A stretch of 62,690 nucleotides of DNA, the filler included, from Nitrospinae bacterium RIFCSPLOWO2_12_FULL_45_22 (GTDB lineage Bacteria; 2-12-FULL-45-22): NCBI GenBank assembly GCA_001803565.1. It is 5 parts of 5 records of this genome, joined end to end, with 100 filler letters (N's around TTAATTAATTAA, not from the genome) between each part and the next. Parts side by side here need not be neighbours in the genome. Positions count along the whole stretch, not along the records: positions 12,607 to 31,564 come from MHDQ01000006.1; 4 more parts are not named here. One strand, given 5' to 3'. The translations under genes were made by a program, and so were the position numbers. The notes under the pieces are model-generated. The model was not told where the DNA came from. It saw only the letters and a program-made list of their open reading frames with translations, and searched no databases. How positions within the stretch are numbered: the first letter of the stretch is position 1; every line of letters starts with the position of its first letter. This document shows, in pieces, positions 11,031-25,557 of the stretch.

Positions 11031-11050
11031 TCTCGCCTCCTTCCCCTTAT

Positions 11051-11287
11051 TTAGGTAAGTTCTTCTATGGCTATAACCTTAACATAAACCTCCCCGGCTT
11101 CAAGACCAAAGCGGCCAAAGACCTTCAGCTTCTCTGCCTCGGGAAACTCCTTGCGGCAGATAAGGGTATTGGCATAGAGCCAGGTCTTATCCGTATCGTC
11201 TAATAGCTTAACCCTCATTTCTCTGGGCGATGCTTCCAAAGCACCCCAGGTCTCTTCTAGTGATCTATAATCCACTTGATAAGCCAT
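11051..11287 (-). CDS. Small protein, possible third highly diverged gamma-like subunit
   Basis: 78 aa with GGAGG RBS, between two UbiD genes; FP...KLKV.GR.G.....YVKVIAIEE loosely echoes the gamma C-terminal half. Confidence 0.5.
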   Translation of the reverse strand: MAYQVDYRSLEETWGALEASPREMRVKLLDDTDKTWLYANTLICRKEFPEAEKLKVFGRFGLEAGEVYVKVIAIEELT

Positions 11288-11334
11288 AATTCTTTCCTCC
11301 CCCTATAATTAATACCATAGGAATTTCCCCTTCA

Positions 11335-11510
11335 GACACGGATGAAGACACAAAATCCTAAATCCTAATATCTAAATCCTAAAACAAATTCAAAATTAAA
11401 ATGACCTAATTTCAAAATAGTTTTGAGCATTTGGGCTTTGGATTTTGATATTGTTTAGAATTTAGGATTTCAAATTTAGAGTCTGTCTTAATTACTATCT
11501 GTGTGTATTT
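11335..11510. repeat. Nested intergenic palindrome (AAATCCT heptamer hairpin inside ACACGGATG/ATCTGTGT arms)
   Basis: AAATCCTAAATCCTAATATCTAAATCCTAAAAC...GTTTAGAATTTAGGATTT inner arms at about 11352-11480. Confidence 0.75.
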
Positions 11511-11533
11511 CGAAAATCTATATCCTAACTAAT

Positions 11534-12506
11534 TTAATCTACCATAGATTTAAACATTGGCCTCATAATATATTCTCCCCTCTTCCCTTTAAAAATAGAG
11601 GCCGGTTTTTCAAACCCCAACCTTTGCCAGTTCTGTGCTACCCAATCCTGTAACTCTCGGGGAAAGGCCCGCTCGAAGTCCACCCATTCATTATCCTGCT
11701 TAGCCGTACAATCGAAATAGACCCCTTTCTTAAGCCCCTCTTTTTTCTCTTCAATGCTCAAAAATGGCTCATACTTTATTCCAGTACATGCCGGGGCATT
11801 CACCTTCCTTATGTCCTTACTGGGATGGACATTTAGTGCGAAGGCTTCCATAGCGTCTTCGTTATTAGAGGGGTCTACTGAGGCATCTATAATGAAAGAT
11901 TTAGTGGTTATTGGTAGAAATCCATGCTGTCCAAGGGCAGCCCTATTGACAACATCGGGGCTGGTCTTTTCTAGCGCTATCCAGAAGCTGGCATACCCAG
12001 AGGGCATAGGGGCGGGCCAGACGCCTATTACAGGTAAATCATAATATACCCTGAGACGACGCCATACTTCGGCTGCAAAGCCAATTCCCAATGCCTTACT
12101 GGATGTAGCATACATACCTTCTACACAATAAGGTATAATCGGGTCTTTTCTGTGAGTGATGGCTGTTACGCGAACCACAGGCCGGGGCATCCTGGGCCCC
12201 TGGATAAAACCCGGGTATTCACCAAAGGGCCCCTCATCCCAAAGCTCACCAGGTCGAATGACACCCTCAATCACAATATCGGCATCGGCCGGTACATAGA
12301 GATGATTGGTCTCACACTTGACCAGCTCCAGGGGCTCCTGCCGCAGTCCACCGATCAACTCCGCCTCCCAAATACCCCACGGGGCACGAAACGCCGCACC
12401 TACAAAGGTCAAAACATCTGAGCCTACATAATAGGCCACCGGCATCGGCTCACCCCGGGCATGCCACTTCTTCATAATAAGATCCCCTTGCTGGCCATAG
12501 GTAGGG
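11534..12506 (-). CDS. UbiD-family paralog of 9534-11030 (5' part lost at contig end)
   Basis: Frame stays open to the spacer; only 2 substitutions in the 115 aa MKKW...DPIIP shared with the 498-aa paralog. Confidence 0.9.
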
Positions 12507-12606
12507 NNNNNNNNNNNNNNNNNNNNNNNNNNNNNNNNNNNNNNNNNNNNTTAATTAATTAANNNNNNNNNNNNNNNNNNNNNNNNNNNNNNNNNNNNNN
12601 NNNNNN
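12507..12606. other. Artificial contig-joining spacer
   Basis: N44-TTAATTAATTAA-N44 (stops in all frames). Confidence 0.97.
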
Positions 12607-12724
12607 CTTTGAGTTGGCTAAAAAAATCTATCCCTTCTCTCTCCATATGTCGGGCTATCCTATAAGCCTCCAGGGTATTAAAGTCATAAATCTTGATCTC
12701 ATCATCTTTAATCTCAAATTTCAT
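12607..12724 (-). CDS. Ferritin/rubrerythrin-like protein (N-terminal fragment)
   Basis: Read manually: MKFEIKDDEIKIYDFNTLEAYRIARHMEREGIDFFSQLK, a typical first helix (A..ME.EG..F); cut by contig end. Confidence 0.6.
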
Positions 12725-12751
12725 AGCCTTTCATTACTTCCTTACTATTTT

Positions 12752-13597
12752 TTATGGGATCTTGTCTACATCTTTGAAAATCCCCAAGGGATATTCCTCT
12801 AGCATATGGCTCATGATCCACTTAATTGACTCTAACGGTGTCTTTTTGAAGGTGGGGGGACAGGCAGATAATATTTCTACAAAGCTATAGCCTACACCAT
12901 CTATCTGTTTCTGGAAGGCCGTTTTTACTGTTTTTAGGGCCTGATTGAATTGGGCTGGGCTAGTCAGGGCACAGCGGGCGGAAAAGGCCATACCTGTCAT
13001 AGTGGCCAGCAGCTCTGCTACATGGATGGGATACCCAAATCCCTGAGGTTGTCTACCTTCCGGGGTAGTAGTAGTGACCTGGTCTAAAAGGGTAGTGGGG
13101 GCCATCTGGCCACCAGTAGTGCCATAGCCAGCATTATTACAAAAGATAGTAGTGAGTTTCTCTCCCCGGTTAACCGCATTTATCATATCACCCATGCCGA
13201 TAGCTGCCAGGTCCCCATCGCCCTGGACAGTAAAAACAATGGGTTTGCCGTGGAGGGATCGTTTTATACCGGTGGCTACCTCAGGGGCCCGGCCGTGCAG
13301 GGCCATAATAGCATCTATCTTTAGCATACCCATCCCCATAGCATGGCAGCCTACACCACCTACACCAATACAATGTCCCCGGATCTTTAACTCATCAATG
13401 GCTTCACCAATAAGGCGATAGATCAGGCCATGCTGGCAGCCAGGACACAGAATAGTGGGGAGGTCATGCATACATTCTGGCCGGGAATAGACTATCTCTC
13501 GCTCTACTTTTTCATCTATATTTTCTTTAATTGTTGAACTTATAATTCTGCCAGAAAAGGGCTCTCGCTTAACATTTTCGTCTACCTTTCTTTTCAT
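12752..13597 (-). CDS. 2-oxoacid:ferredoxin oxidoreductase beta subunit (TPP-binding, VOR-like)
   Basis: CPGCQHG, VGC, HGRA, QGDGDLAAIG...NNAGYGTTGGQMAPTT, LSACP. Confidence 0.92.
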   Translation of the reverse strand: MKRKVDENVKREPFSGRIISSTIKENIDEKVEREIVYSRPECMHDLPTILCPGCQHGLIYRLIGEAIDELKIRGHCIGVGGVGCHAMGMGMLKIDAIMALHGRAPEVATGIKRSLHGKPIVFTVQGDGDLAAIGMGDMINAVNRGEKLTTIFCNNAGYGTTGGQMAPTTLLDQVTTTTPEGRQPQGFGYPIHVAELLATMTGMAFSARCALTSPAQFNQALKTVKTAFQKQIDGVGYSFVEILSACPPTFKKTPLESIKWIMSHMLEEYPLGIFKDVDKIP

Positions 13598-13640
13598 GGT
13601 AATTCCTTTCCTTCTTGCATAACAGCAGTATCTGCGGCTA

Positions 13641-13664
13641 GGCAGGGTAAGACCCTGCAGCTAC
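13641..13664 (-). repeat. GTAG-type REP
   Basis: Minus strand GTAGCT-GCAGGGT-CTT-ACCCTGC-C hairpin. Confidence 0.6.
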
Positions 13665-13666
13665 TG

Positions 13667-14770
13667 TTAGATTAATCTCTTTACCTCTTGCAAAACGGTC
13701 TTAGGGAAGATCATACCGCTGGACGTAACCAGGTGGCGATGGGCAATGCCAACCAGGTGTACTTCTGCCTTATCTTGCACTGCGGCTTGCACATCCCGCA
13801 GCATCTGTCCCAGGTTGTCTTCTACTACCACGAATTTTTTGGTATGCTGGGCCGCAGCCCTTATTATCTGGGTGGGGAAAGGCCAGAGGGTGATAGGTCT
13901 AATAAAGCCAACTCTTAACCCTTCTTTCCGGGCCTGGTGATAAGCCCATAAAGAACTACGGGCACTGGAGCCAAAGGATACCACTATTAGGTCTGCATCT
14001 TCGGTATGGCCGGCCTGATAGCGGACCTCTTTTTCGGTCATCTCCTGGTATTTTTTGGTTATACGTATCATATAATCTCTGTAACTACCAAGGATTCCTG
14101 GGGCATTCTGGATAAACCTACCTGGATCATCATGATCACCAACAGTAGTTAGAGCCCAACTCTTTTTATCGGGGAGCGGCCCAAAGTCTAATCTGTGCAA
14201 CTCTAAGCCTTCCTGCATCTGCCCAATGATAGCATCAGTCAGGATAATGACCGGATGGCGGTACTTATCTGCCAGACAAAAGGCTAATTGGACCAGCTCA
14301 AAGGTCTCTTGCACTGAAGCGGGGGATAAGACAATGTTGTGATAGCCGCCATTGCCTCCACCCCGGGTAACCTGCATATAGTCCATCTGAGAAGTCTGGG
14401 TATTGCCACCACCAGGGCCACCACGCTGGACATCTGCGATGACACAGGGGAGTTCTGATGCTGCAAGGGTAGAGATCCCTTCCTGCATGAGACTAAAACC
14501 GGTACTGGAAGAAGAGGTCATGGCCCTTACACCGGTAGCGGCCGCACCATAGAGCATATTTATAGAAGATACCTCACTCTCGGTCTGGACAAATACTCCA
14601 CCCACCTTGGGTAGTTCGCGGGCAAAGAATTCTACTACCTCATTCTGCGGGGTTATAGGATAACCGAAATAACAGCGACAATCGGCATATAGGGCACCAT
14701 AACCCAGGGCTTCATTACCATTAATCAACCTTTTCTCTAGCATAATAGCTCCATTCTTCTCTTGCGTCAT
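13667..14770 (-). CDS. 2-oxoacid:ferredoxin oxidoreductase alpha subunit (VorB-like)
   Basis: GNEA, YFGYPITPQ, QTESEV, TSSSSTGFSLMQE, QRGGPG, RPITLWPFP. Confidence 0.92.
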   Translation of the reverse strand: MTQEKNGAIMLEKRLINGNEALGYGALYADCRCYFGYPITPQNEVVEFFARELPKVGGVFVQTESEVSSINMLYGAAATGVRAMTSSSSTGFSLMQEGISTLAASELPCVIADVQRGGPGGGNTQTSQMDYMQVTRGGGNGGYHNIVLSPASVQETFELVQLAFCLADKYRHPVIILTDAIIGQMQEGLELHRLDFGPLPDKKSWALTTVGDHDDPGRFIQNAPGILGSYRDYMIRITKKYQEMTEKEVRYQAGHTEDADLIVVSFGSSARSSLWAYHQARKEGLRVGFIRPITLWPFPTQIIRAAAQHTKKFVVVEDNLGQMLRDVQAAVQDKAEVHLVGIAHRHLVTSSGMIFPKTVLQEVKRLI

Positions 14771-14843
14771 TAGGTTAGTGCGGCATTGTGTTATCAGGTC
14801 ATTGGGCGATAGCGTTAATGGGTTATTAGGTCACCTAATGACC
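14766..14843. repeat. Intergenic palindromic element (ATTAGGTC family)
   Basis: GTCATTAGGT...ACCTAATGAC arms with internal 8-nt periodic units; same family at ~39281 and 61601. Confidence 0.65.
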
Positions 14844-15617
14844 TCATAAAATCTCTTTTACGTTTTTAAACTCTCCTAAAGGATACTCGGCTATCATATA
14901 TTCTTCTACCCACTTCAGGGCCTTATTGGGCGGCATATGAAGGGTAGAAGGGCAGGCAGATAGTATCTCTACAAACCCATAGCCTATACCATCCATCTGT
15001 TTCTGGAAGGCCAGGTTAAGGAATTTTTTGGTCTGATTATAATTTTTGCGAGACGTTAACGCACCCCGGGCAGAATAGGCTGTCCCTCGCAGCATAGCCA
15101 GCATCTCTGCTACATGGATAGGATAGCCTGCTACCTGGGGGTCTCGTCCAGTAGGGGTAGTAGTGGTGACTTGCTCTAATAAGGTAGTGGGGGCCATCTG
15201 GCCACCAGTGGTGCCATAGCCAGCGTTGTTGCAAAAGATAGTAGTCAATTTTTCCCCCCGGCCTATGGCATTAATGATATCGCCCATGCCAATAGCCGCC
15301 AGGTCACCATCGCCCTGGATAGTAAATACAATGGGTTTGCCACCCTGGGAGCGCTTTATCCCGGTAGCGACGCCCGGACCCCGGCCATGCAAGGCAAAGA
15401 CAAAGTCGGTAGCAATGGTCCCTATCATAAACCCATGACAGCCCACACCGGCTACACCAATAGCCTGTTTCTTGATGCCCAGTTCATCTATGGCCTCACA
15501 GATAACCCGGGCCACGGTGCCATAATGACAGCCCGGGCAATACATAGTTGGCAATCCGGTATAGGATTCCGGGCCCCCACAGAGCAATTCTCTTTCAGGA
15601 TGATCTATTTGTGGCAT
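14844..15617 (-). CDS. 2-oxoacid:ferredoxin oxidoreductase beta subunit (second copy)
   Basis: CPGCHYG, GDGDLAAIG, GGQMAPTT. Confidence 0.92.
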   Translation of the reverse strand: MPQIDHPERELLCGGPESYTGLPTMYCPGCHYGTVARVICEAIDELGIKKQAIGVAGVGCHGFMIGTIATDFVFALHGRGPGVATGIKRSQGGKPIVFTIQGDGDLAAIGMGDIINAIGRGEKLTTIFCNNAGYGTTGGQMAPTTLLEQVTTTTPTGRDPQVAGYPIHVAEMLAMLRGTAYSARGALTSRKNYNQTKKFLNLAFQKQMDGIGYGFVEILSACPSTLHMPPNKALKWVEEYMIAEYPLGEFKNVKEIL

Positions 15618-16684
15618 AAGATGTTTTTCACCTCCTCGGAGACAGTCTTGGGAAAGATCATACCACTGGATGTAGGTAAGTGACGGGCTAGAGAGCCTAA
15701 CAAATGTACCCCTGCCCTTCCTTCCACCGCAAATTCAACGTCTTCAACGAGTTGGCCTAAACTGTCTTCTACTACCAGGAAATTTCTTACCCTATGAGAG
15801 GTCTCCCGGATGATTTTTGTCGGGAAAGGCCATAGGGTAATGGGTCTGATTAGGCCCACTTTGTACCCTTCTGGTCGAAGACGGCGTAATGTTTCTAAAG
15901 ATATCCTGGCGCTAGACCCATAAGCTACTATCACCATCTCGGCATCTTCGATCTCGTAAGTTTTAAAGCGCACTTCATTATCAGTGATCTCCTGGTATTT
16001 CTTCCCCAGATTAACAATTATATCGCGATAGTTATTGAAAAAGGTCCAGATATTGGGTACCGTATTTCTGTATTTACGCTCTCCCTGGCCGGTAGCGGCC
16101 CAATCTTTGGCGGGCAAGGGGCCGAAGTTGATGGAATAGAGCTCCAGATTCTCCATCATCTGCCCTAAGATAGCATCAGAGAGGACAATGACCGGGTGGT
16201 GGTATTTATCTGCCAGATAAAAGGCCCGCTGGATTAATTCAAAGATCTCCTGGACGGAAAATGGTGCCAGGACAAGGGGGTAGTAATCACCATTGCCACC
16301 ACCTTTAGTCACTTGGGCATAATCCATCTGGGCGGTTTGGGTAGAACCAGCCCCCGGCCCTCCTCGTTGGACATCAACAATAACTGCCGGTAAGCTACAA
16401 TAGGCCATATGGGCTATACATTCCTGCATCAGGCTGAACCCAGTACTGGATGAAGAAGTCATGGCCCGTACCCCAGTAGCTACCGCACCATAAAGCATAT
16501 TTATAGAGGTAAGTTCACTCTCGGTTTGGACAAAATTACCGCCTATTTTAGGCAGCTCCCGGGCAAAGAATTCTACTACTTCATTCTGGGGGGTTATGGG
16601 GTAGCCAAAATAGTTCCTACAGCCAGCATAAATAGCGCCATAACCCACGGCCTCATTTCCTGTGATCAAGAGCTTTTTTCCCAT
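15605..16684 (-). CDS. 2-oxoacid:ferredoxin oxidoreductase alpha subunit (second copy)
   Basis: YFGYPITPQ, QRGGPG, RPITLWPFP. Confidence 0.92.
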   Translation of the reverse strand: MGKKLLITGNEAVGYGAIYAGCRNYFGYPITPQNEVVEFFARELPKIGGNFVQTESELTSINMLYGAVATGVRAMTSSSSTGFSLMQECIAHMAYCSLPAVIVDVQRGGPGAGSTQTAQMDYAQVTKGGGNGDYYPLVLAPFSVQEIFELIQRAFYLADKYHHPVIVLSDAILGQMMENLELYSINFGPLPAKDWAATGQGERKYRNTVPNIWTFFNNYRDIIVNLGKKYQEITDNEVRFKTYEIEDAEMVIVAYGSSARISLETLRRLRPEGYKVGLIRPITLWPFPTKIIRETSHRVRNFLVVEDSLGQLVEDVEFAVEGRAGVHLLGSLARHLPTSSGMIFPKTVSEEVKNILCHK

Positions 16685-16708
16685 CTCCTCTTCCTTCCTT
16701 CACTTTCT

Positions 16709-16787
16709 TGCAAAACAAGCTTTGCCACTACATATTCCTGTAACAACGCTGGTTTCATGAGGTATGCAGTGATCGAGCTTGCTTGAC
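16709..16787. repeat. Divergent pair of GTAG-type REPs
   Basis: Minus-strand GTAGTGGCAAAGCTTGTTTTGCA plus degenerate plus-strand GCAGTGATCGAGCTTGCTTGAC; the same pair recurs at 61562-61680. Confidence 0.65.
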
Positions 16788-16797
16788 AACACATTTT

Positions 16798-17235
16798 TTA
16801 GTGATGACTAATTACCACTACCGTTATTTCATCACCATCCTGAACCTTTAAGCGTTCTTTTAGATTATAAGGGGCTATAATCTCCAGCTTATCGGCCGGA
16901 TATTCTGGTACCAACGGGATAACAATAGCCCCTGGTATGCTTCCCTGGATCATTATTTTATAACATATCCCCTGGCAGAATGCCGGATTATCCGGGGCAA
17001 TGACTATACCCGGACGGCTTTTTAACTTCTGAAGACCCTCTAATGCTAGAGGGTTTTCTAATTTTAAATTAAGGGTCCCCGGATAGGGATTGATACCCAC
17101 CTTATTAAGGAACTGTTCTTTGGCCCAAGGCAATTCAGTAAATACCTTTCCCTCTCCTAGGCCAGAGACTATCTTCCCATACAGGGTAAGACCAGTTAAG
17201 ATATCTTTATCTTCTGAATATTGCAAACCAGTCAT
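16798..17235 (-). CDS. ribK: CTP-dependent (archaeal-type) riboflavin kinase
   Basis: GKIVSGLGEG, PYPGTLN, LEIIAPYNLKERLKVQDGD signature. Confidence 0.88.
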   Translation of the reverse strand: MTGLQYSEDKDILTGLTLYGKIVSGLGEGKVFTELPWAKEQFLNKVGINPYPGTLNLKLENPLALEGLQKLKSRPGIVIAPDNPAFCQGICYKIMIQGSIPGAIVIPLVPEYPADKLEIIAPYNLKERLKVQDGDEITVVVISHH

Positions 17236-17248
17236 TTCTCCTTAGTAC

Positions 17249-17378
17249 GTAAGCGTTCAGCCGTCAGCTATCAGCAAGACTTAGCGTAAGGCGTTAGGGG
17301 TAAGGCGTGAGGAGAAATTTTTCTTACCCCTAACGATTGTTTTTAACTGAAAACTGACTGCTGATAGCTGAAGGCTTA
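17249..17378. repeat. Nested palindromic element (GTAAGCGTTCAGC family enclosing GTTAGGG family)
   Basis: Outer GTAAGCGTTCAGCCGTCAGCTATCAGC...GCTGATAGCTGAAGGCTTA; inner CGTTAGGGGTAAG...CTTACCCCTAACG. Confidence 0.8.
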
Positions 17379-17379
17379 T

Positions 17380-17943
17380 CTAAGAATTGCCCCAACGGTG
17401 ATAGAGATTATGCTCAATATTAAAAAGGTCCAGGACTTTCCCTACCGTCTGATCAACTATATCGGTTATGGTCTTAGGGCCATTATAAAACGCCGGTGTC
17501 GGCGGCAAGATTATAGCCCCCATCTCCGTTGCCCGCTCTAGATTCCGGATATGACCGAGGTGCAGAGGTGTTTCCCGGAAGAGGAGGACTAATCTTCTCC
17601 TCTCCTTAAGCACCACATCGCAAGCCCTTACCAATAAATTATCATTATAGGAATGGGCGATAGCCGATAAGGTTTTTGCACTACAAGGGGCCACTATCAT
17701 CCCATCGGTACGGAAAGAGCCACTGGAAATCGGCGCTGCAATATCGTCAACCGCATGGCAATAATTGGCCAATTTTTCTATTCTTGCTATTTCTTTATAG
17801 GCTGTTTCCAGGGCTATAGTCTTTTTACCGGGGTCGGTGATTACCAGGTGGGTTTCTATCTCGGGGTGAGTATTCAATACTTCTAACAGCCTTATGCCGT
17901 AGATAGCGCCACTAGCGCCAGATATGCCAATGATCAGCTTCAA
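17380..17943 (-). CDS. ubiX: Flavin prenyltransferase UbiX
   Basis: GISGASGAIYG, APISSGS, APCS.KTL, LKERRRLVL..RETP, PAFY. Confidence 0.95.
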   Translation of the reverse strand: MKLIIGISGASGAIYGIRLLEVLNTHPEIETHLVITDPGKKTIALETAYKEIARIEKLANYCHAVDDIAAPISSGSFRTDGMIVAPCSAKTLSAIAHSYNDNLLVRACDVVLKERRRLVLLFRETPLHLGHIRNLERATEMGAIILPPTPAFYNGPKTITDIVDQTVGKVLDLFNIEHNLYHRWGNS

Positions 17944-17956
17944 GGTTCTCTCTCTC

Positions 17957-19180
17957 TCACAGATTAACTATCTTATCTTCCTTATATTCCAGAAGGTGTC
18001 CCAGCTTCTCTTTTTTAGTCCTAAGATATTGTATGTTTTCTGGCGTGTAGATGGTTTCAATCGGCACTCTTTCGGTGACTCGTAAGCCGAAGCCTTCAAT
18101 GCCAACCACTTTCTTAGGGTTATTGGTTAAGAGACGGATAGTAGAGAGGCCAAGATCGGCCAGTATTTGTGCCCCAATACCATAATCCCGGAGGTCGGCT
18201 GGGAAGCCCAATTCCAGATTAGCTTCTACGGTATCTTTACCTTCATCCTGGAGCTTATAAGCCTTTATCTTATTAAGCAGGCCAATGCCCCGACCTTCCT
18301 GGGACATATAGAGAAATACACCCTGGCCCTCGGCCTGGATTCTCCTCAAGGCATCTTCCATCTGGTGGCCACAATCACAGCGTAAGGAGCGAAATACATC
18401 ACCGGTCAAGCACTGGGAGTGGACCCTTACCAGGACATCTTCCTTCCCTTGTACATCTCCTGTAACCAGAGCTACATGGGCCTTTTCGTCCAGGATGCAG
18501 ATATAGCCAACGGCCATGAATTCACCAAATCTGGTAGGCAATTTTGCCTCAGCTATTTTTTCGATAAGGCGCTCTGTCCGGCGGCGATATTGGATCAGAT
18601 CAGCTACTGAAGCAATTTTCAACTGGAACTGTCTGGCTACTCCGATGAGCTGGGGTAATCGAGCCATAGTCCCATCATCGTTCATTATTTCACAAAGGAC
18701 CCCGGCCGGGAAAAGGCCAGCTAGCCGGGCCAGGTCTACTGCGGCTTCTGTATGGCCAGCCCTCTGCAACACCCCACCTTTCTTGGCTGCTAAAGGGAAT
18801 ATATGGCCTGGTTTACTGATATCCTGCGGGCCAGTAGCAGGGTTAACTACAGCCAGGATAGTAACAGCCCGATCATAGGCAGAGATGCCAGTCGTAATTT
18901 TGCCTTTAGCACCAATAGATACCGTGAAGGCCGTGCCATGAGTAGAGGTATTATTTTCTACCATTAGCGGTATTTCCAGCTCCCGCAGTCTCTCTTCGCA
19001 GCAAGGCATACAGATCAAACCCCGGCCATACCTGGATATAAAGTTGATGGCCTCGGGAGTGACTTTTTCGGCAGCCATCAAAAAATCACCTTCATTTTCC
19101 CGGTCTTCATCATCAACCATGATGATCATCTTACCTGCCCTGATATCTTCTATCACTTCTTCAATCTTATTGAATGGCAA
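17957..19180 (-). CDS. ribBA: Bifunctional DHBP synthase / GTP cyclohydrolase II
   Basis: [50 protein letters not shown]. Confidence 0.96.
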
Positions 19181-19210
19181 CCTTCATCCCCCCTCTTTTG
19201 GGTCATTGAA

Positions 19211-19648
19211 TTATTGGGTTTTGATCTGCCTTAAAAATTCTTCTACGGCCAGGTTAGTATTATCAATAATCCTTTCTATGTCTGTCTGGTTAGCCTGGTG
19301 GATATGCACGCCAGCGATAACCACAATAATAGAATTCAGCTCCCGCACTAAACGGTCTGCTATAGGCCGGGCTAACTCATCGTCTTTATGACCCAGGATG
19401 CTGATTACCGATACATTAGCTGTTACCCGCGAAGGGTCTTGGGTACTGGGTCTAGGAAGCCCCACGGCTACACCGCCTATATGCGGCTCATCGCCCCCAG
19501 TGATATGGACAATGATACCATTGGTCAGGGCAAAGGCCCTTAAGCTAACACGGCAAGAGCCATTACCCTCATCAATCTGGTAAATGCCCTCAGATCTAAT
19601 ATTATTTATTACTTCCTGTGAATTAAGATCTATCTCTGTTCCGAGCAT
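19211..19648 (-). CDS. lpdD: LpdD-like prenylated-flavin chaperone (PAC-fold)
   Basis: GGDEPHIGGVAVGLPR, GHKDDELA, VVIAGVHI motifs; in an operon with ubiX. Confidence 0.7.
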   Translation of the reverse strand: MLGTEIDLNSQEVINNIRSEGIYQIDEGNGSCRVSLRAFALTNGIIVHITGGDEPHIGGVAVGLPRPSTQDPSRVTANVSVISILGHKDDELARPIADRLVRELNSIIVVIAGVHIHQANQTDIERIIDNTNLAVEEFLRQIKTQ

Positions 19649-19815
19649 TTTTTATAAATCAGATAAGAGTGCCTCTTTAGTTAGTAAGAAGCCCCTTGGC
19701 AGTTTTGACCCATTAGCCCCGAATATATCACAGAATTCTTCCCCTGACAACGCAATATTTCATTGGAGTTTCTCCAAAAATTATTAAAGCTAGTATCATC
19801 CTTTTCAAACCTTTC

Positions 19816-19946
19816 AACGCAGAGACCGCAGAGAACACAAAGATACGTACATCGTAAGGAGTGAGAAGTGAGGTGTAAGGGGGTGAGGAGTTATCGCTTT
19901 ACGCCTTACTACTAATGCCTTACGGCTTTTTGCGTACTCTGCGGTT
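19816..19946. repeat. Nested palindromic element (ACCGCAGAG 9-mer arms enclosing CGTAAGG heptamer hairpin)
   Basis: Outer ACCGCAGAG...CTCTGCGGT; inner CGTAAGG...CCTTACG (19853-19924). Confidence 0.75.
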
Positions 19947-20173
19947 CATTTCCACTTCTCCATTTCCCAAAACCCTCTATAGACCTGCAATTATCTCCTC
20001 TAGGGACAAAATTTTGGGTATAATCGTACGATTGACCTGCCAAGTAGGGACAGGTTATAATTACTGAAATATTTGTTTTGGCTACAAAGAAATTATAAGA
20101 GGGGAGGTAAAATATTAGGGGCCTCTCGACGACCCTAATCGGGTTCATCTATGTACGAGGAAAGGAGGAAACC

Positions 20174-21877
20174 ATGCTACACAGGGACAAGCAGAAGGGA
20201 GGGGCTAAGAACACGATAGGCCGGAAAGAGAAGAATAATGCTGGCCGCCAAAACTTGAGGTTCTTAGGAGGGCTATTAGGCCTGATCGGGGCATTCTTGC
20301 TTCTCTGGACAGGGATAGTACCAGCGCAGGGGATACCGGAAAACGGGATCCTGTATTACTCGGTGACGGACAATACGGTCCGCGGCATCGATGTGGTAAC
20401 TCAGGCGGAGGTCGCGTCGCTCCCGACGACAGCCTTCGTTGGAGCAGTGGTGGGCGGTGCCCGGGAGATTGCGTTCGATCCCGTAACGCGTCTGATATGG
20501 TACTCTGCAACCGACAACACCATCCGTTCCCTGAATAGAGATACGCTTGCAGAGGGCCCCCAAATCAGCGGGATCCCTGGTGCTGTCATTGGCGCAGCCC
20601 GCCATGTTTTTATTGACTACGCGCGTCGCAGGCTGTTGGTACCTATCACTGACGGTTCTGTCCAGATATATAACCTCTCAAACCAGCAGCCATCGGGCCA
20701 GATCCCTATCAGTTTTTTCACAGACGGGAATGTGGGCGGATATCGGCACTTTGTTTCTGACGTCCGGACGGGGAACCTTTGGTACGCAGCGACCGATGGA
20801 TCTTTCCGAGAGATGGACCCCGACACAATGACGCTTACAGGGAAAGTGATTTCCTTCGGTGTCCAGATTGGCGCCAATCCCGGTGCCTACCGCCACTTCG
20901 TTGTGGACCCTGCACGATACTTACTTCTCTATGCTGTCACAGACGGGAGTATTGCCTCGATCAATCTCACAACGCTCCAGGCTGCCCAGTTCAACATCTC
21001 GGCCGCTGCCTTCGTTGGTGCCAACCCTGGTGCGGGGCGGGTAATCACCTACGAGCCTTCCCTCCGCGGATTGACAGTGATCCTGGACGACGGTGGTGAG
21101 AATTTCGGCCCAGGCGATCGTCTTAAACTCTCGGTCGGGGTCGCCAATCCCGATAGCTCGGTGACTGTGGATGCGTATCTGGTACTCATTTTCCCAGATG
21201 GGAGCCGCGTGTTCTTCGAACGCGGGGAAGGTGGCAGTTTGATCCCCGCGGCAGCCACGGCCGATCCTACTACTTGGAAAAAGCTTCTTTCAAGGGTTAC
21301 ACTTACTACGGGGCTGGATACCGGTTCAGTTCCTATACTGGATTATACCTTTACAGGCAGCGAGCCGACTGGTACTTATCAGTGGATGCTGGCATTTATG
21401 AATGCCGGGACGTTGGATGTGCTCACTTACAAGAGTGAGCCTTTCCTGGTAGGTACCTATGCGCTGTCCAAGTTCGTGGGGAAATGGGTGGGGAGCTGGA
21501 CCAACCAGACATTTGGCTCGACCGGATCGGCGGTCTTTGAGGTTGCTGATAGCTCTCCTGGTGTCGTGACGATCACGATTGATTTAGGCGGAAATGTCTT
21601 TGGTGGTGTAGATCCACCGGCCTTTACGGTGACAGCTAAGCTGAATTCAGATGGAAGCATCACATTAGGCGGGGGGTCGTCGGATTTCGGCACGCTAAAG
21701 GCCACGGCTAAGGTCGACGGGACGCTCAATGGCACCATTGACTCAATCCCCTCGACGGGCATTAAGTCAGCGGACTTCTCCGGGAGGCTTTCGGACGGCT
21801 TACTCAATTTGAATTACACTGTGAACTTCACCGACACGACAAAGGCTGTGGGGATTCTGAAGGCGACACGCCAGTAA
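20174..21877 (+). CDS. Secreted repeat protein (putative beta-propeller plus beta-sandwich domains)
   Basis: AGGAGG RBS; signal peptide; five ~45-aa repeats (YxxTDG/NS ... GA.xG..R....D). Confidence 0.75.
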   Translation: MLHRDKQKGGAKNTIGRKEKNNAGRQNLRFLGGLLGLIGAFLLLWTGIVPAQGIPENGILYYSVTDNTVRGIDVVTQAEVASLPTTAFVGAVVGGAREIAFDPVTRLIWYSATDNTIRSLNRDTLAEGPQISGIPGAVIGAARHVFIDYARRRLLVPITDGSVQIYNLSNQQPSGQIPISFFTDGNVGGYRHFVSDVRTGNLWYAATDGSFREMDPDTMTLTGKVISFGVQIGANPGAYRHFVVDPARYLLLYAVTDGSIASINLTTLQAAQFNISAAAFVGANPGAGRVITYEPSLRGLTVILDDGGENFGPGDRLKLSVGVANPDSSVTVDAYLVLIFPDGSRVFFERGEGGSLIPAAATADPTTWKKLLSRVTLTTGLDTGSVPILDYTFTGSEPTGTYQWMLAFMNAGTLDVLTYKSEPFLVGTYALSKFVGKWVGSWTNQTFGSTGSAVFEVADSSPGVVTITIDLGGNVFGGVDPPAFTVTAKLNSDGSITLGGGSSDFGTLKATAKVDGTLNGTIDSIPSTGIKSADFSGRLSDGLLNLNYTVNFTDTTKAVGILKATRQ

Positions 21878-21956
21878 CCTCAATCGGGCTGGTCCCTCGT
21901 CATCTCACCTCGGTGACCTGGTTCGGAGCCTTTCCAAAGTGAGGTCAGGGGAATGG
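21862..21956 (+). repeat. Imperfect direct repeat, copy A
   Basis: GGCGACACG..AGTAACCTC....GGG.TG.TCCCTCGTCATCT...CTTTCC.AAGT.AGGTCAGGGGAATGG, shared with 29053-29146. Confidence 0.8.
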
Positions 21957-22009
21957 CAGTCTGGGAAGAGCCACACCCACGTCAATAAAAATTAATACCA
22001 ATTCTGTTA

Positions 22010-22678
22010 TTAGCCGTGGGATTCATATTCTTGCTGAATCTCTTCTTCTTTGGGTATTATTTTTAGCTCTACCCGGCGGTTCATTTGCTGGCCTTCCGGG
22101 GTATCATTACTAGCTACGGGTATGGTTTCTCCATACCCTCTAGCCTTGATCCGGGTGGAGTTAATCCCTTCGGCTACCAAAAAGGTCTTTACGGATTCGG
22201 CCCGCCTCTCTGACAACCTCTGGTTATGCTCTGCCCTACCCTGGCTGTCCGTATGACCGGCTACTTCCAGGTAGGAATGGGGATATCTTTGTAAGACATC
22301 GGCTACTTCTCTCAATTTACTCTGGCTGCCAGGCTTCAGCTCAGTAGAGTTAACATCGAATAGGAGCTCACCGGGCATGTTAATTACTAGGGTATTTTCT
22401 TTGCGTTGCGTAGCAAGACCCGCTATGCGCTGCATCTCTTTCTCTTGTTGATCCAGATACCAACCGATCAATCCTCCAGCAACTGCCCCAGCCGCTGCCC
22501 CAATGATAGCACCACGGGTCTGTCTTTTAGCACCGGCTGCTCCTATAGCCGCTCCCGTAGCTGCTCCTACAACGGCACCGGTTTCCCGTTTACCCCACTT
22601 CCATTCTGAGCAACCAGTGAAGGCAAAAGAGCTAATAAGCACCCAGGTAAATCCCTTGTATATAATGGATCTTTGCAT
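22010..22678 (-). CDS. OmpA-family lipoprotein with glycine zipper (YiaD-like)
   Basis: FTGC lipobox; GAxxGA zipper; GHTDSQG...NQRLSERRA...NRRVE. Confidence 0.92.
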   Translation of the reverse strand: MQRSIIYKGFTWVLISSFAFTGCSEWKWGKRETGAVVGAATGAAIGAAGAKRQTRGAIIGAAAGAVAGGLIGWYLDQQEKEMQRIAGLATQRKENTLVINMPGELLFDVNSTELKPGSQSKLREVADVLQRYPHSYLEVAGHTDSQGRAEHNQRLSERRAESVKTFLVAEGINSTRIKARGYGETIPVASNDTPEGQQMNRRVELKIIPKEEEIQQEYESHG

Positions 22679-22795
22679 AAATCTGACTCCCTCCTTTCTA
22701 ACTAACTATCATAAATTAGTTTGGGTGGATCATTGGATAACTCTTCTTATCCTAAGTCTGCTTATCCCCTAACAGGGTCCTCGAAAGGACCAACT

Positions 22796-23392
22796 CTATT
22801 GCAAATTTGTCTCTACTAGGAGGATTTCGGCTTGTCTATTTATGGATCTTCCCTCATAGGTTTCATTAGGGCTCTTCGGTAGGAATTCGCCAAGACTCTC
22901 TACGTAGACCCTATAAGGCAAAATTTCTGGTTTACCAAGCAGGTATGCCGCTACCATTTGAGCCCTTCTCTGCCCCAGTTCTAAATTGTATGCCTCTGGT
23001 CCCACATTATCCGTATGGCCCACTACGAATACCGCCAGATTCTCCTTAGCAATTAGCTCTTGGGCAATTTGATCCAGGGTATCCTTGGCCTGTTCCGGTA
23101 ATTGCCATTTATCGAAACCAAACATAATGGAGTGGGTTGCAAGCAATTTCTTGACAATACCTTTTTTGTCTAAGCGGGCAAGCTCTTCCCTAATATGGGT
23201 GTCCTCCGCCTTCAATTCCTCAACCTGGGAAGAGAGGTCAGTAATTTTGGTTTCTAAGGGCCGTACCTTTTGTTCCACAAAGCCTTTAGTGGCACAGCCT
23301 TGAGCACCTATCAAAAGGAAGCTCACTAAAGCTAATGAAAAAAACAACGATAAAACCTTTATCTGCTTCATGATTTTCTTCACCTCCGTCAT
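22796..23392 (-). CDS. OmpA-family lipoprotein
   Basis: QGCATK lipobox; coiled coil; FGFDK, GHTDNVG...YNLELGQRRA. Confidence 0.9.
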   Translation of the reverse strand: MTEVKKIMKQIKVLSLFFSLALVSFLLIGAQGCATKGFVEQKVRPLETKITDLSSQVEELKAEDTHIREELARLDKKGIVKKLLATHSIMFGFDKWQLPEQAKDTLDQIAQELIAKENLAVFVVGHTDNVGPEAYNLELGQRRAQMVAAYLLGKPEILPYRVYVESLGEFLPKSPNETYEGRSINRQAEILLVETNLQ

Positions 23393-23423
23393 GAGTTTTT
23401 ATTCCTCAGATCTACAGTAATGG

Positions 23424-24026
23424 TCAGTCCTTTTTTCTCCTTAGTTCGATGATAATTTGATCAAAGCCCTTTCCAGCGCTACGCCATTGAATAACTCTGA
23501 AGGGCTCTAAGCCAAAGTAGTCAGAAACTACCCGCAAGAGTACCAAGTTAATTATATCTTCATTGCTTAAGGTTATATACCGAGCTTTTGGTACCCTTTT
23601 CCTATAATATCCATAGGCATTACCAAACGGGGGGCCAACCCTTGCCTGACGGGGTATAGGGACATAGTAGATATCGGGACTTAGTCCTAACCGGAGACTA
23701 ATATCGAGCCAATTAGCGCCTCCTAATCTCCAATTCAACAAAATATCAGGGTTGGTTTTTGTGCGTTGGGAAATAAATAGCACAACCGGAATTTCTTCAT
23801 AGATAATTCGTTCAGCTAAGGTTTCTATCAGGGAAGGCTTCACCCGGAAATAATCGATATAGACCTCAGTGAGGCAGAAATGGGGGTTCTTATGTTGTTT
23901 AAATTTTTTTCTTGCCTTTGCTTCGCTAGCTGGGGGGTAAATCAATATCACCAAAGATATTGCCAGCAGCAATCCCGTCACCGTCAATACTTTTGACAAC
24001 CTTCTTCGTTCATTGATGCCTAGCAT
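23424..24026 (-). CDS. Exported hypothetical protein
   Basis: Signal peptide; GPPFGNAYGYY motif; same strand as its neighbours. Confidence 0.7.
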   Translation of the reverse strand: MLGINERRRLSKVLTVTGLLLAISLVILIYPPASEAKARKKFKQHKNPHFCLTEVYIDYFRVKPSLIETLAERIIYEEIPVVLFISQRTKTNPDILLNWRLGGANWLDISLRLGLSPDIYYVPIPRQARVGPPFGNAYGYYRKRVPKARYITLSNEDIINLVLLRVVSDYFGLEPFRVIQWRSAGKGFDQIIIELRRKKD

Positions 24027-24102
24027 GGTACGAATACTCCTTGTTTGCTATCAACGGGTGGGGTATCATCACTTCGGAGACTACCCCACCCGTAGAAAAC
24101 CA

Positions 24103-24603
24103 CTATCTTTCGGTTAATATATCTAACACCGATTTTACCAGGGTCTGATGGGGACCCAGGTCAAAATGGGCACTGGTCAAAAGATTACCCCTCGTATCAT
24201 AAAAATCAGCATCGATAGAGATGTTATTTCCTGAGGTATTGGTCAGGAAAAGGAAACTGTCTAAGTGTCGGTTAAAGATGGCACGGGTCTTATCTTTATC
24301 TAGGCTGGGTCGCTCTCGATCGTCCCCCTTGTCTCCCTCTTCTTCAGCTATTGCAGCATATATAGCACTGAAGATAAAAGGAGGTTCACCTGACAAAGAA
24401 GGGATCTGATAATTGATAATCTTCTCCATACCAGGGTTCATGGTAGTGACCATACCAATAAGCTGGTCACTAGTGGAGCGGAAATTTACAGAACCCATAA
24501 AGGTTTTTTTGCCATTGGCCAGAACAGGGGTCGAACCCACAAGGGTCAAGGCCAAAGCCACAAATACTACCTTCTTGATTAACCCCTTTTTAAATTGCCT
24601 CAT
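24103..24603 (-). CDS. Exported hypothetical protein
   Basis: Signal peptide ending VLA; beta-rich C-terminus. Confidence 0.65.
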   Translation of the reverse strand: MRQFKKGLIKKVVFVALALTLVGSTPVLANGKKTFMGSVNFRSTSDQLIGMVTTMNPGMEKIINYQIPSLSGEPPFIFSAIYAAIAEEEGDKGDDRERPSLDKDKTRAIFNRHLDSFLFLTNTSGNNISIDADFYDTRGNLLTSAHFDLGPHQTLVKSVLDILTER

Positions 24604-24674
24604 GATGGACCCTCTTTTCTTTTATTTAGGATAATGTTGCCTCCCATGATTTGTTATGGGAGCAAAACCACGGT

Positions 24675-25256
24675 TCACAGATCTTTGTAACCTGAAGTTT
24701 TAACCTGACTCAACCTAGCCCGGGTAATGGGACCTGCTATACCATCCACAGTGAGGTCCTGATTCCTTTGGAAGTTCATTATCGCCCGGCGCGTCCGGGC
24801 TCCCATAATGCCATCTATGGGGCCGCAATCATAACCCATGCTCCCAAGGGACTTTTGCAATTCTGCTACTGCTGGATCATACCGGGCATAGGATCTGCTG
24901 GAGTAGTTAGCCGAAGGAGAGGATGAAGAATACCTTCTTGGTGTTCCCCGGTCTTCTACTGCACTGCCAATAAGCCCGCCGGCTGCACCTCCTAACCCAC
25001 TCCCGATCAGGAGACCAGTAGCGGTTTCCCCTACTGCACTGCCGATTAGTCCACCGGCTAGGCCACCAGTAGCTACCCCAGCACCGATGCCTAAGGCGGT
25101 CTTGGGGTTATCTTGCACCCACCTCTGCATCCCTGTACATCCAGAAAGCAGGGTCATAAGCAACCCAGCCACTAGGGTTATGACTAATCCGGCTACAAAA
25201 ATAAAGGAGAGAGCAGTCATTAGGTCTTTCCGCGCATAATTAATCATCTTTCTCAC
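24675..25256 (-). CDS. Glycine-zipper lipoprotein with peptidoglycan-binding domain
   Basis: LSGC lipobox; glycine zipper; LQ..L..GYD.GPIDG.MG..T..AI..FQ....L.VDGIAGP.T. Confidence 0.88.
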   Translation of the reverse strand: MRKMINYARKDLMTALSFIFVAGLVITLVAGLLMTLLSGCTGMQRWVQDNPKTALGIGAGVATGGLAGGLIGSAVGETATGLLIGSGLGGAAGGLIGSAVEDRGTPRRYSSSSPSANYSSRSYARYDPAVAELQKSLGSMGYDCGPIDGIMGARTRRAIMNFQRNQDLTVDGIAGPITRARLSQVKTSGYKDL

Positions 25257-25296
25257 CTCCTCTCGTTTCTTTGTTAAATATCTATTTCTTTAGTAT

Positions 25297-25313
25297 AGCA
25301 AAAAGTATACCAA
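25297..25313 (-). promoter_or_regulatory. sigma54 (-24/-12) promoter
   Basis: Minus strand TTGGTATACTTTTTGCT = GG-N10-GC, about 40 nt upstream of the lipoprotein gene. Confidence 0.7.
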
Positions 25314-25425
25314 GCAATAAATGGGTAGATATCACTTACCATAAGAACCCCATCCTTACTGCTTAGTTTTATTATTATGGGTTGCGATAAATGGTTCTGC
25401 GGGGGAAAATAAAAAAGGGGATATA

Positions 25426-25507: not shown

Positions 25508-25557
25508 TTTTATCCCACAGAATTGGTAGAGATGGATTTTGGGTAGGGGGGTTACTC

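Follow-up and report, generated by a model that had tools for sequence, protein, structure and literature searches.

Gene Content and Assembly Support of the Locus

The window, i.e., the whole stretch of 62,690 nt that was analyzed, consists of five contigs joined by N spacers and belongs to a genome (labelled G000) that is 85% complete. Contig C6 (positions 12607–31564) carries four co-oriented genes encoding an LpdD-like protein, RibBA, UbiX, and RibK, a homolog of the archaeal-type riboflavin kinase (Table 1). The preliminary description had reported these four ORFs as co-oriented; all of them are present at the coordinates given, on the minus strand, with family scores far above the curated cut-offs. 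The intergenic gaps are 30, 13, and 144 nt for lpdD/ribBA, ribBA/ubiX, and ubiX/ribK, respectively.

Two independent public DNA runs, X1 and X2, yielded contigs that tile the locus. The junction between the OFOR gene and ribK is bridged by an X2 contig (14322–17409) and an X1 contig (15900–17331), and that between ribBA and lpdD by an X1 contig (17932–19864). The four-gene observation itself is confirmed. For comparison we used a single genome of the same taxonomic order (G001, 68% complete) with the corresponding locus L063; locus L005 was counted as the same relative.

Table 1. Positions in the window of the four genes, the long spacer, and the upstream region, with the family matches of the products (score versus cut-off).
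Feature	Position	Strand	Product length	Match or remark
Upstream intergenic region	19649..20173	-		Divergent from the + strand gene at 20174
LpdD-like gene	19648..19211	-	145 aa	PF21758 PAC_bac, E 1.2e-33, 115.7 bits vs 27
ribBA	19180..17957	-	407 aa	DHBP_synthase + GTP_cyclohydro2; NCBIfam NF006803, 636.6 vs 569
ubiX	17943..17380	-	187 aa	Flavoprotein; NCBIfam UbiX NF004685, 263.9 vs 188
ubiX–ribK spacer (144 nt)	17236..17379	-		Holds a short dispersed repeat
ribK (archaeal-type riboflavin kinase homolog)	17235..16798	-	145 aa	PF01982 CTP-dep_RFKase, 114.1 bits vs 25

The LpdD-like Protein

In a Pfam profile search, the LpdD-like protein covers positions 2–115 of the 115 positions of PF21758; no NCBIfam model matches it. 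A phmmer search aligned it with the LpdD entries 8p4w, 8pzh, and 8po5 of the PDB (E 2.3e-4), including the PHIG and HKD motifs. Its residues H56, H87, and D89 fall on the LpdD metal ligands H35, H61, and D63 and, together with K88, are invariant among 18 aligned homologs. According to the LpdD study, the metal ligands are His35, His61, and Asp63, the protein binds prFMNH2, and H35 is required for this binding (PMC10865409).

The AlphaFold model (pLDDT 82.6) has a PAC-like beta-sandwich fold. In a Foldseek comparison with the PDB, ranks 1–5 and 7 are occupied by Lactobacillus plantarum LpdD chains (E 1.1e-7 to 8.7e-6, target-normalized TM-score 0.74–0.84; for the top matches, E 1.1e-7 and 0.79–0.84). 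Proteasome chaperones rank after the LpdD chains, the fold being common to PAC3 and Pba3/4. Sequence identity to L. plantarum LpdD is 16–20%. A single PAC_bac copy was found in the 85% complete genome by tblastn and profile search.

By its Pfam match, PDB sequence match, predicted fold, and all three metal ligands, the product of 19211–19648 is an LpdD homolog, as had been proposed, and a putative prFMNH2-binding chaperone.

UbiX and the UbiD Genes

UbiX also passes the NCBIfam model TIGR00421 (233.4 vs 108.9), and residues 1–185 match PDB 1sbz with E 9e-54; other UbiX/Pad1 structures were matched as well. With family models passed over its full length and one match above the cut-off in the 85% complete genome, it is a genuine UbiX in the single copy found.

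The preliminary description had pointed to a cell making large amounts of UbiD enzymes. In support of this point, G000 contains 11 UbiD-domain matches, two of which are halves of one gene split between contigs C5 and C231, which gives about 10 UbiD genes. Contig C5 (positions 1–12506 of the window, the "contig 1" of the preliminary description) carries UbiD ORFs, as had been noted; there are three, of which one is truncated at the contig edge. The final 88 nt of C5 recur without change at the start of C231, which makes C231, not C6, the continuation of C5; a junction of C5 with C6 was rejected, and the earlier caution that the two contigs were not shown to be linked was right. The first 31 bases of C6 recur in no other contig. 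Two short ORFs located between UbiD genes on C5 (9135–9428 and 11051–11287) were considered as candidate gamma subunits of phenylphosphate carboxylase and rejected, neither having a Pfam match at E ≤ 0.1. The module itself contains no UbiD gene and no gene for the prenyl donor of UbiX.

The Archaeal-Type Riboflavin Kinase Homolog

RibK aligns with the riboflavin kinase MJ0056 of Methanocaldococcus jannaschii (PDB 2p3m, E 2.1e-17) through the stretches PY.GTLNL and LEIIAP, and PYPGTLN and E118 are invariant among 22 aligned relatives. The two proteins (for MJ0056, PDB 2p3m and 2vbu; PF01982) share the single-domain family, about the same length, and conserved stretches; RibK has no winged-helix domain. 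Unlike MJ0056, RibK resides in a bacterium that also carries RibF, its use of CTP is putative, and it scores below the NCBIfam equivalog cut-offs (77.8 vs 168 for ribK_Meth, NF040694; 106.7 vs 279 for wHTH-RibK, NF010762). By its sequence it is classed as a PF01982 homolog and not as an equivalog under the NCBI criterion, so that its substrate and nucleotide are those suggested by homology only.

It is the sole PF01982 gene in the 85% complete genome. An intact bifunctional RibF is encoded on contig C233 (273.2 bits vs 184.35), with both the FAD_syn and the Flavokinase domains. The kinase of the module is thus monofunctional, as proposed, in that it is a PF01982 protein without an FAD-synthetase domain, and it is additional to RibF. 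In the relative, too, ribBA is single and RibF is encoded separately. Among 14 control genomes, PF01982 matched the four archaea and no others; among the relatives of the window, 3 of 61 genomes had a match.

RibBA and the Scattered Riboflavin Genes

RibBA is a bifunctional 3,4-dihydroxy-2-butanone-4-phosphate synthase/GTP cyclohydrolase II above the equivalog cut-off, with complete domains (DHBP_synthase, residues 7–198, profile 1–191 of 191; GTP_cyclohydro2, residues 208–373, profile 2–165 of 165). PF00926 and PF00925 have one match each in G000 (85% complete) and in G001 (68% complete), and tblastn of G000 found this ribBA copy alone, the 85% completeness leaving some room for second copies. 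As previously noted, ribD, ribE, and ribH are absent from the locus; ribD lies alone on contig C115, and ribE, ribH, and nusB lie together on C17, where ribE and ribH are 12 nt apart with no ribBA in between. A sole copy, missing from between ribE and ribH, indicates a housekeeping gene moved beside ubiX rather than a duplicate. Its placement there may have been selected for co-expression or may be neutral.

These results change the preliminary description, which saw a flux-boosting module dedicated to prFMN. That view stands for the kinase, which is present in addition to RibF, and falls for ribBA, which is no booster copy; the proposed search for second housekeeping genes accordingly yielded RibF and no other ribBA in either incomplete genome. 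As ribBA is the sole copy found, the module cannot be dedicated to prFMN. The description had also named a combination of findings that would overturn it, namely a 19211–19648 product unrelated to LpdD together with sole ribBA and riboflavin kinase genes; this combination was not found, because the product is an LpdD homolog and the genome has RibF as a second kinase.

In the canonical bacterial riboflavin operon, ribD-ribE-ribBA-ribH(-nusB) stand under the control of an FMN riboswitch. RibBA of the window is of the usual kind, full-length and bifunctional, and ribE-ribH-nusB are still together. In contrast to the canonical arrangement, ribBA lies outside the ribE-ribH string, ribD stands alone, and neither ribD, ribE, or ribH beside ribBA nor an RFN element upstream was found: C6 gave no FMN riboswitch match at E ≤ 1, and neither of the two genomes yielded RF00050.

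Spacers and Upstream Region

The region 19649..20173 is likely the promoter region of the module. Promoter-like sites occur at 19808..19780 and 19750..19722, and their total of 6 shows no excess over chance (7.1 ± 2.8 expected). Terminator-like sites number 9 against 4.1 ± 2.6 expected, with none in a spacer that would mark the end of an operon. An Rfam search of the upstream region gave just two weak, irrelevant matches at E ≤ 1.

Neither this region nor the ubiX–ribK spacer could be aligned convincingly with its counterpart in the relative. A conserved regulatory sequence was rejected on the grounds of this poor alignment; what stands out are short dispersed repeats. In the genome, 14-mers of the ubiX–ribK spacer reach as many as 10 copies, and the upstream region carries dispersed repeats and a depth spike. 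One X1 contig skips 64 nt of the spacer (17275 to 17340), a strain variant seen in one run.

The four genes are operon-like and we infer that they are co-transcribed, the 144-nt gap between ubiX and ribK counting against this.

A look-up of RNA data sets covering the stretch listed none. It should be mentioned that a 1140-nt contig spans the ribBA/lpdD junction in two runs labelled metatranscriptomic; these are flagged "probably DNA", and the contig was not counted as transcription.

Gene Neighborhoods and Fusions in Other Microbes

Locus L063 of the relative has the order PAC_bac-RibBA-UbiX-RibK on one strand, the same as here, with protein identities of 60, 84, 75, and 61% for the LpdD-like protein, RibBA, UbiX, and RibK. 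The genes flanking the two loci are quite different, and the two genomes represent two families of one taxonomic order. Outside the window, the full module was found in 1 of 55 LpdD-like loci and in 0 of 80 RibK loci. The additions of ribBA and LpdD are therefore lineage-specific, as judged from two related, non-independent genomes.

The pairing of UbiX with RibK is much wider. RibK is immediately preceded by a same-strand UbiX gene in 27 of 80 metagenome loci, and UbiX lies downstream in one more; among the 63 RibK loci showing at least 700 nt of upstream sequence, it is upstream in 22 and missing in 35. On the RibK tree, the UbiX-linked rows stand in at least three separate places, and the label needs 5 changes compared with a shuffled mean of 22.8 (0 of 500 shuffles as low); RibK of the window forms a separate clade. 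As for LpdD-like loci, a same-strand UbiX neighbor occurs in 20 of 55, and 30 contain UbiX or UbiD, while 22 have neither nearby and lie in unrelated housekeeping contexts, e.g., after selB or a Methyltransf_28 gene.

All three pairwise fusions exist in nature. RibK and PAC_bac are joined in a single ORF at locus L042 and in four representative clusters (P0095, P0096, P0097, and P0099), with the invariant motifs kept in both halves; UbiX is fused to RibK in P0244 and P0245 and to PAC_bac in P0243 and P0310. Other fusions combine UbiX with an amino-acid-kinase-family domain (P0328), PAC_bac with a NUDIX domain (P0173), RibK with HAD (P0124, P0167, and P0212), and MFS with RibK. These fusions are known as predicted genes from metagenome contigs, some of them as single sequences. 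Overall, the neighborhood survey that had been suggested strongly backs the tie of the kinase to UbiX and LpdD, through recurrent adjacency and fusions elsewhere.

In addition, clusters P0008/P0030 and P0009/P0031 share the lengths of their longest contigs (99,485 and 8,433 bases), a hint of more co-location of LpdD and RibK.

Discussion

Among the closest known systems is lpdB (UbiX)/lpdD of L. plantarum, the partners of the gallate decarboxylase LpdC (PMC10865409; PDB 8po5, 8pzo, 8pzh, and 8p4w). In both organisms, UbiX and LpdD-family genes form one co-oriented unit apart from the UbiD genes that they serve, and the two LpdD proteins have the same fold and the same three metal ligands. Here, unlike in L. 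plantarum, ribBA separates lpdD from ubiX, the gene of an archaeal-type riboflavin kinase comes after, one lpdD/ubiX set stands for about 10 UbiD paralogs, and the protein, at the low identity given above, has 21 additional N-terminal residues of low model confidence. The PhdA/PhdB/PhdC system of Mycolicibacterium fortuitum (UbiD, UbiX, and prFMN maturase) is similar in having a UbiX gene and a small accessory protein that aids UbiD activation; PhdC, however, is a maturase with an HpaC-like flavin-reductase fold, unlike the PAC-like chaperone here, and in the accessible portion of its description there is no kinase or riboflavin-synthesis gene (PMC13040415).

Operons of the phenylphosphate-carboxylase type (ppc clusters; metagenome loci L086 and L106) end, as does the module, in ubiX with a PF01982 gene directly behind it in the same orientation, and their RibK proteins are 42–48% identical to RibK of the window. 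They carry genes for UbiD, Phenyl_P_gamma, and a HAD-like subunit and have neither LpdD nor ribBA, whereas the module has no UbiD gene. The names ppcX and ppcY stand for the UbiD-like and UbiX-like genes and not for the kinase (PMC5946492). A search of the openly accessible literature found no paper on the pairing of a CTP-dependent (DUF120) RibK with UbiX; the ORF that follows ubiX in phenol clusters of the Thauera type may have been mentioned earlier.

Gene identities, copy numbers, the order kept in the relative, the recurrent UbiX–RibK adjacency, and the natural fusions were all shown here; we infer every biochemical step, the nucleotide of RibK, and any physical hand-over. Our model is that the four genes are probably a conserved, operon-like unit feeding flavin into the prFMN branch for about 10 UbiD-family (de)carboxylases. 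RibBA, the sole copy found, would make both riboflavin precursors, with ribD, ribE-ribH, and ribF located elsewhere; RibK would phosphorylate riboflavin to FMN without forming FAD, so that UbiX would have an FMN source of its own in addition to the housekeeping RibF; UbiX, likewise the sole copy found, would prenylate reduced FMN to prFMNH2; and the LpdD-like protein would bind prFMNH2 and pass it to apo-UbiD enzymes.

The model has to be weighed against a neutral juxtaposition, in which ubiX and lpdD alone cooperate, as in L. plantarum, and ribBA and ribK are housekeeping genes placed here by an ancestral rearrangement in this small order. A sole ribBA must serve all flavin needs, the rib genes of G000 are scattered anyway, the four-gene order is known from two related genomes only, and no other lineage places ribBA next to an LpdD-like or a RibK gene (1 of 55 loci; 1 weak match among 80). 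For ribK, however, this explanation is contradicted by its adjacency to UbiX in unrelated clades and its fusions with UbiX and LpdD, as well as by the complete RibF, which already provides for housekeeping FMN and FAD; moreover, the four genes keep their arrangement in two families of this taxonomic order whose loci differ on both flanks. We consider a neutral origin unlikely. We judge it very unlikely that the PAC_bac protein, instead of carrying prFMNH2, serves as a general assembly chaperone of the proteasome-chaperone kind or in another role and lies beside ubiX incidentally. The fold shared with PAC3 and Pba3/4, the low identity to LpdD, and the 22 family members without UbiX or UbiD nearby would fit it, but all three metal ligands are invariant, including the equivalent of H35, the LpdD chains are better structural matches than the proteasome chaperones, and UbiX occurs both as a neighbor, in 20 of the 55 loci, and as a fusion partner.

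The RibK-like protein might also phosphorylate another small alcohol for UbiX, such as prenol, or a modified flavin. Dimethylallyl phosphate, which prenol would yield, is the prenyl donor of UbiX, and no gene for this donor lies in the module; the cell already has RibF, RibK scores under both equivalog cut-offs, and the fusions P0328 and P0173 show that precursor-supply enzymes do join these proteins. Against this, the stretches shared with the M. jannaschii riboflavin kinase are kept, PYPGTLN and E118 of RibK do not vary among the 22 relatives, and the RibK–HAD and MFS–RibK fusions fit a role in the riboflavin pathway, in whose synthesis steps HAD phosphatases act; such a change of substrate is quite unlikely.

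Returning to the model of a flavin-carrying module, a stronger version can be put forward tentatively, as a possibility that we rather doubt: RibK, UbiX, and LpdD may be coupled physically and pass the cofactor along as a chain (a "prFMN metabolon"), with the sole ribBA wired in and co-expressed with the prFMN branch for about 10 UbiD enzymes. Because UbiX consumes its own flavin, a dedicated kinase would reload it with fresh FMN after each turnover, and the chaperone would take the oxygen-sensitive prFMNH2 straight from UbiX. This lineage would have gone furthest, in that a sole ribBA within the unit would couple expression of the entry step of flavin synthesis to that of the prFMN branch.

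In heterologous hosts, many UbiD enzymes are difficult to activate. More than co-expression of UbiX will be needed, as stated in PMC10865409. The adjacency and the fusions described here point to a cheap and specific candidate addition, namely a monofunctional riboflavin kinase of the archaeal type, with or without LpdD. For riboflavin biology, the locus presents a bacterium whose single ribBA has been taken from the rib string into a probable operon of a cofactor branch, one that lacks an FMN riboswitch. The findings also raise the question of whether a UbiX that consumes its cofactor may need an FMN source of its own, separate from the FAD-directed RibF.

Organization of the four-gene locus

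The genome is a metagenome-assembled one (3.67 Mb, 321 contigs, 85% complete, 1.3% contamination), and five of its contigs are joined in the window by N spacers with the TTAATTAATTAA linker; since these are separate contigs, adjacency across positions 12507–12606, 31565–31664, 44138–44237, and 57329–57428 is artificial. Because the final 88 nt of contig C5 are the initial 88 nt of C231, C5 runs on into C231 and not into C6.

Positions in the window of the contigs, the four module genes, and the genes behind ribK
Feature	Position	Strand	Remarks
C5	1–12506		contig
C6	12607–31564		contig; carries the four-gene module
C7	31665–44137		contig
C8	44238–57328		contig
C33	57429–62690		contig
LpdD-like, 145 aa	19648..19211	-	PF21758 PAC_bac, E 1.2e-33
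RibBA, 407 aa	19180..17957	-	complete DHBP_synthase + GTP_cyclohydro2; NCBIfam equivalog NF006803, 636.6 bits (cut-off 569)
UbiX, 187 aa	17943..17380	-	NF004685, 263.9 (cut-off 188); TIGR00421 passed
RibK, 145 aa	17235..16798	-	PF01982 CTP-dep_RFKase, 114.1 bits (cut-off 25)
Two tandem VorB-like 2-oxoacid:ferredoxin oxidoreductase alpha/beta pairs	12752–16684	-	C6, behind ribK

The four open reading frames on C6 are arranged head to tail, and their boundaries in the preliminary description proved exact. The gaps from lpdD to ribK are 30, 13, and 144 nt, and the genes may be co-transcribed. Two independent public DNA runs supply contigs that tile the locus and span the oxidoreductase–ribK and ribBA–lpdD junctions. 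Behind ribK, the oxidoreductase genes continue in the same orientation to the start of the contig. Further such pairs are numerous in the genome, and on C58 one directly follows a UbiD gene; a UbiD–oxidoreductase partnership is conceivable. The spacers 17236–17379 and 19649–20173 contain short dispersed repeats, among them a unit able to form a hairpin; their 14-mers recur 3–13 times genome-wide. A variant without 64 nt (17275 to 17340) is present in one public run. Contig depth peaks at 19607–20166. A 567-aa ORF on the plus strand (20174–21877) diverges from the module; its N-terminus is signal-like, and it lies in a stretch with a G+C content of 0.537 versus about 0.46 in the surroundings.

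UbiX matched solved UbiX/Pad1 structures, with 1sbz at the top (E 9e-54), and RibK matched the crystal structure of riboflavin kinase MJ0056 from M. jannaschii (2p3m, E 2.1e-17) and reached neither of the two NCBIfam RibK equivalog cut-offs.

Identity of the LpdD-like protein

Four independent lines of evidence (Pfam, LpdD chains of the PDB, predicted fold, and metal ligands) bear out the assignment of the first gene product as an LpdD homologue. A 60%-identical member carries the UniRef title [quoted passage not shown], and the JGI title of another family member is "gallate decarboxylase subunit D". In a phmmer comparison, the protein matched L. plantarum LpdD chains 8p4w, 8pzh, and 8po5 with E 2.3e-4. 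The AlphaFold model built with 18 homologues as input (pLDDT 82.6, pTM 0.75) is poor only at residues 1–3 and 7–19, and Foldseek against the PDB placed the LpdD chains at the top (E 1.1e-7, target-normalised TM-scores 0.74–0.84), with proteasome-assembly chaperones ranking behind them; the authors of the LpdD crystal structure give the same ranking (PMC10865409). The metal ligands of LpdD are His35, His61, and Asp63, and the H35A substitution abolished prFMNH2 binding (PMC10865409). These ligands align with H56, H87, and D89 of the LpdD-like protein, three residues that do not vary across the alignment of 18 sequences.

Copy number of flavin and UbiD genes

Each of the four module proteins was found once by tblastn across the whole genome. 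In profile searches, too, DHBP synthase and GTP cyclohydrolase II each matched once, in the same ORF, and UbiX (above cut-off), PAC_bac, and PF01982 gave one match apiece. As had been proposed, ribD, ribE, and ribH are absent from the module locus: ribD stands by itself on C115 behind a pyruvate phosphate dikinase gene, and ribE-ribH-nusB are contiguous on C17 (L071:3551-5121), where ribE and ribH are a mere 12 nt apart. The usual gene string is ribE-ribBA-ribH, with ribBA in between. Because only one ribBA was found in this 85% complete genome while the other rib genes lie elsewhere, the view of ribBA as a second, flux-boosting copy has to be abandoned; it is the housekeeping gene, moved from this string to beside ubiX. 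For the kinase the check for a housekeeping counterpart turned out differently: C233 carries an intact bifunctional RibF (FAD_syn + Flavokinase; TIGR00083, 273.2 bits, cut-off 184.35), and RibK thus appears, by homology, to be a truly additional riboflavin kinase. No FMN riboswitch was found on C6 or in the rest of the genome.

There are 11 UbiD-domain matches in the genome, two of which are halves of one gene split by contig ends; since the C5/C231 overlap merges these two, about ten UbiD genes share one UbiX and one LpdD-like protein. Three UbiD genes are in tandem at 7680–12475 of C5, which is contig 1 of the preliminary description. The UbiD ORF at 11534–12506 is cut by the contig end, with its absent N-terminal part opening C231, and the assembly break is probably due to the near-identical tandem paralogues (79–92% identity). 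The 476-aa UbiD of C5 is nearest to phenylphosphate carboxylase alpha (TIGR02723, 489.7 bits, under the cut-off of 564.6), and the small ORFs (97 and 78 aa) between the C5 UbiD genes had no Pfam match.

Conservation and neighbourhoods

Sampling of the lineage is poor: of 60 comparison genomes, a single one belongs to the same order (G001, 68% complete), the others sharing the domain only. G001 contains the four genes co-oriented and in identical order (PAC_bac-RibBA-UbiX-RibK), with protein identities to those of the window of 60, 84, 75, and 61%, respectively. One flank there holds tRNA-Thr editing domain, SDR, and HAD genes and the other a CLP1-type P-loop gene, with no oxidoreductase genes behind the module. 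Because the order is the same while both flanks differ, the four genes are a unit retained through changing surroundings, and the oxidoreductase genes are outside it. G001 has a single ribBA, a separate RibF, and three UbiD genes.

In a survey of 55 LpdD-like loci from genome_contigs, 24 contained UbiX, in 20 of them as an adjacent, co-oriented gene; UbiD occurred in 16 and either of the two in 30. RibK was beside LpdD in two loci, and the complete module in one (L005, whose contig is as long as that of G001 and which is counted with it as one relative). The 22 loci without UbiX or UbiD had unrelated housekeeping neighbours (selB, Methyltransf_28, NOG1) and no consistent other partner. The LpdD-like gene follows selB in L008, L013, L027, and L028 and Methyltransf_28 in L009, L014, L021, L022, and L030; these are Desulforudis-, Desulfofundulus-, and Desulfovirgula-type genomes with a conserved context and no UbiX or UbiD within 8 kb.

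Among 80 metagenome loci anchored on RibK (35–48% identity), UbiX immediately preceded RibK in the same orientation in 27 (22 of the 63 showing at least 700 nt upstream), lay downstream in one, and was 4.5 kb off in one; there was no LpdD-like match and one weak RibBA-like match. Two fully read UbiX-RibK loci are of the phenylphosphate-carboxylase type (HAD-like, UbiD, Phenyl_P_gamma, UbiD, UbiX, RibK), with bacterial genes (OmpA, AcrB) after RibK. Of the "dedicated prFMN supply operon" proposed earlier, the UbiX-RibK and UbiX-LpdD pairings recur; the full module was seen in one of the 55 LpdD loci.

In a quick-method RibK tree (100 rows, 137 columns, forks often unresolved), UbiX-linked rows occur in at least three separate parts: one starred clade with 37 rows (27 linked, 5 not, 5 unknown), the window's clade (support 91; linked are L005 and the window itself, with six rows of unknown context), and a starred clade around L141. 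The label changes 5 times against a shuffled mean of 22.8, with 0 of 500 shuffles as low, a difference inflated by relatedness. The pairing extends beyond a single clade; winged-helix-fused, archaeal-type RibK forms are not UbiX-linked.

Natural fusions

A 298-aa ORF of a Bacillota metagenome-assembled genome (L042) combines CTP-dep_RFKase (residues 15–135) with PAC_bac (residues 181–262). Searching 1.84 billion representative proteins with it gave four full-length RibK-LpdD clusters (P0095, P0096, P0097, P0099; 285–297 aa; domains confirmed by hmmscan), more than 50% different from one another and with invariant PGTLN, PH.G, and HKDD motifs. Among 90 long UbiX-containing proteins returned by a second search, hmmscan confirmed UbiX-RibK (P0244, P0245) and UbiX-PAC_bac (P0243, P0310) fusions. 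Each pairwise fusion of RibK, UbiX, and LpdD is thus represented, in gene predictions from metagenome contigs of which some are single sequences and an occasional one may be a frameshift artefact. The three proteins may be in contact.

Other fusions were RibK-HAD (P0124, P0167, P0212), RibK-PNPOx_N (P0107), MFS transporter-RibK (P0231), PAC_bac-NUDIX (P0173), and UbiX-AA_kinase of the amino-acid-kinase family (P0328), and, among the 90 long UbiX proteins, UbiX-PNPOx_N (16) and UbiX-PF09523 (11). Some of these may signal prenyl-donor supply or maturase roles.

Discussion

As a rival reading, neutral placement plausibly accounts for the position of ribBA; in the case of ribK, this reading conflicts with the recurrent pairing with UbiX and with the fusions. 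The RibK-like protein may phosphorylate another substrate, e.g., prenol, as its scores under the equivalog cut-offs would allow, but its riboflavin-kinase motifs are intact. Three observations weaken the view that the PAC_bac protein is no prFMN carrier: its ligands are conserved, LpdD chains head the fold ranking, and fusions with UbiX exist.

All components belong to known families, and the pairing of UbiX with LpdD has been published before; for a link between PF01982 kinases and UbiX, no paper was found in a literature search without most subscription journals. What is new is LpdD and ribBA as members of the unit, ribBA as the sole copy, and the three kinds of fusion.

Taken as a prFMN supply unit, RibBA would feed riboflavin synthesis, RibK would form FMN without FAD, presumably with CTP, and UbiX would convert reduced FMN to prFMNH2 by the known prenylation reaction (PMC10865409). 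A dedicated kinase would be sensible because UbiX consumes its own flavin, and the LpdD-like protein would hold prFMNH2 and deliver it to the apo-UbiDs.
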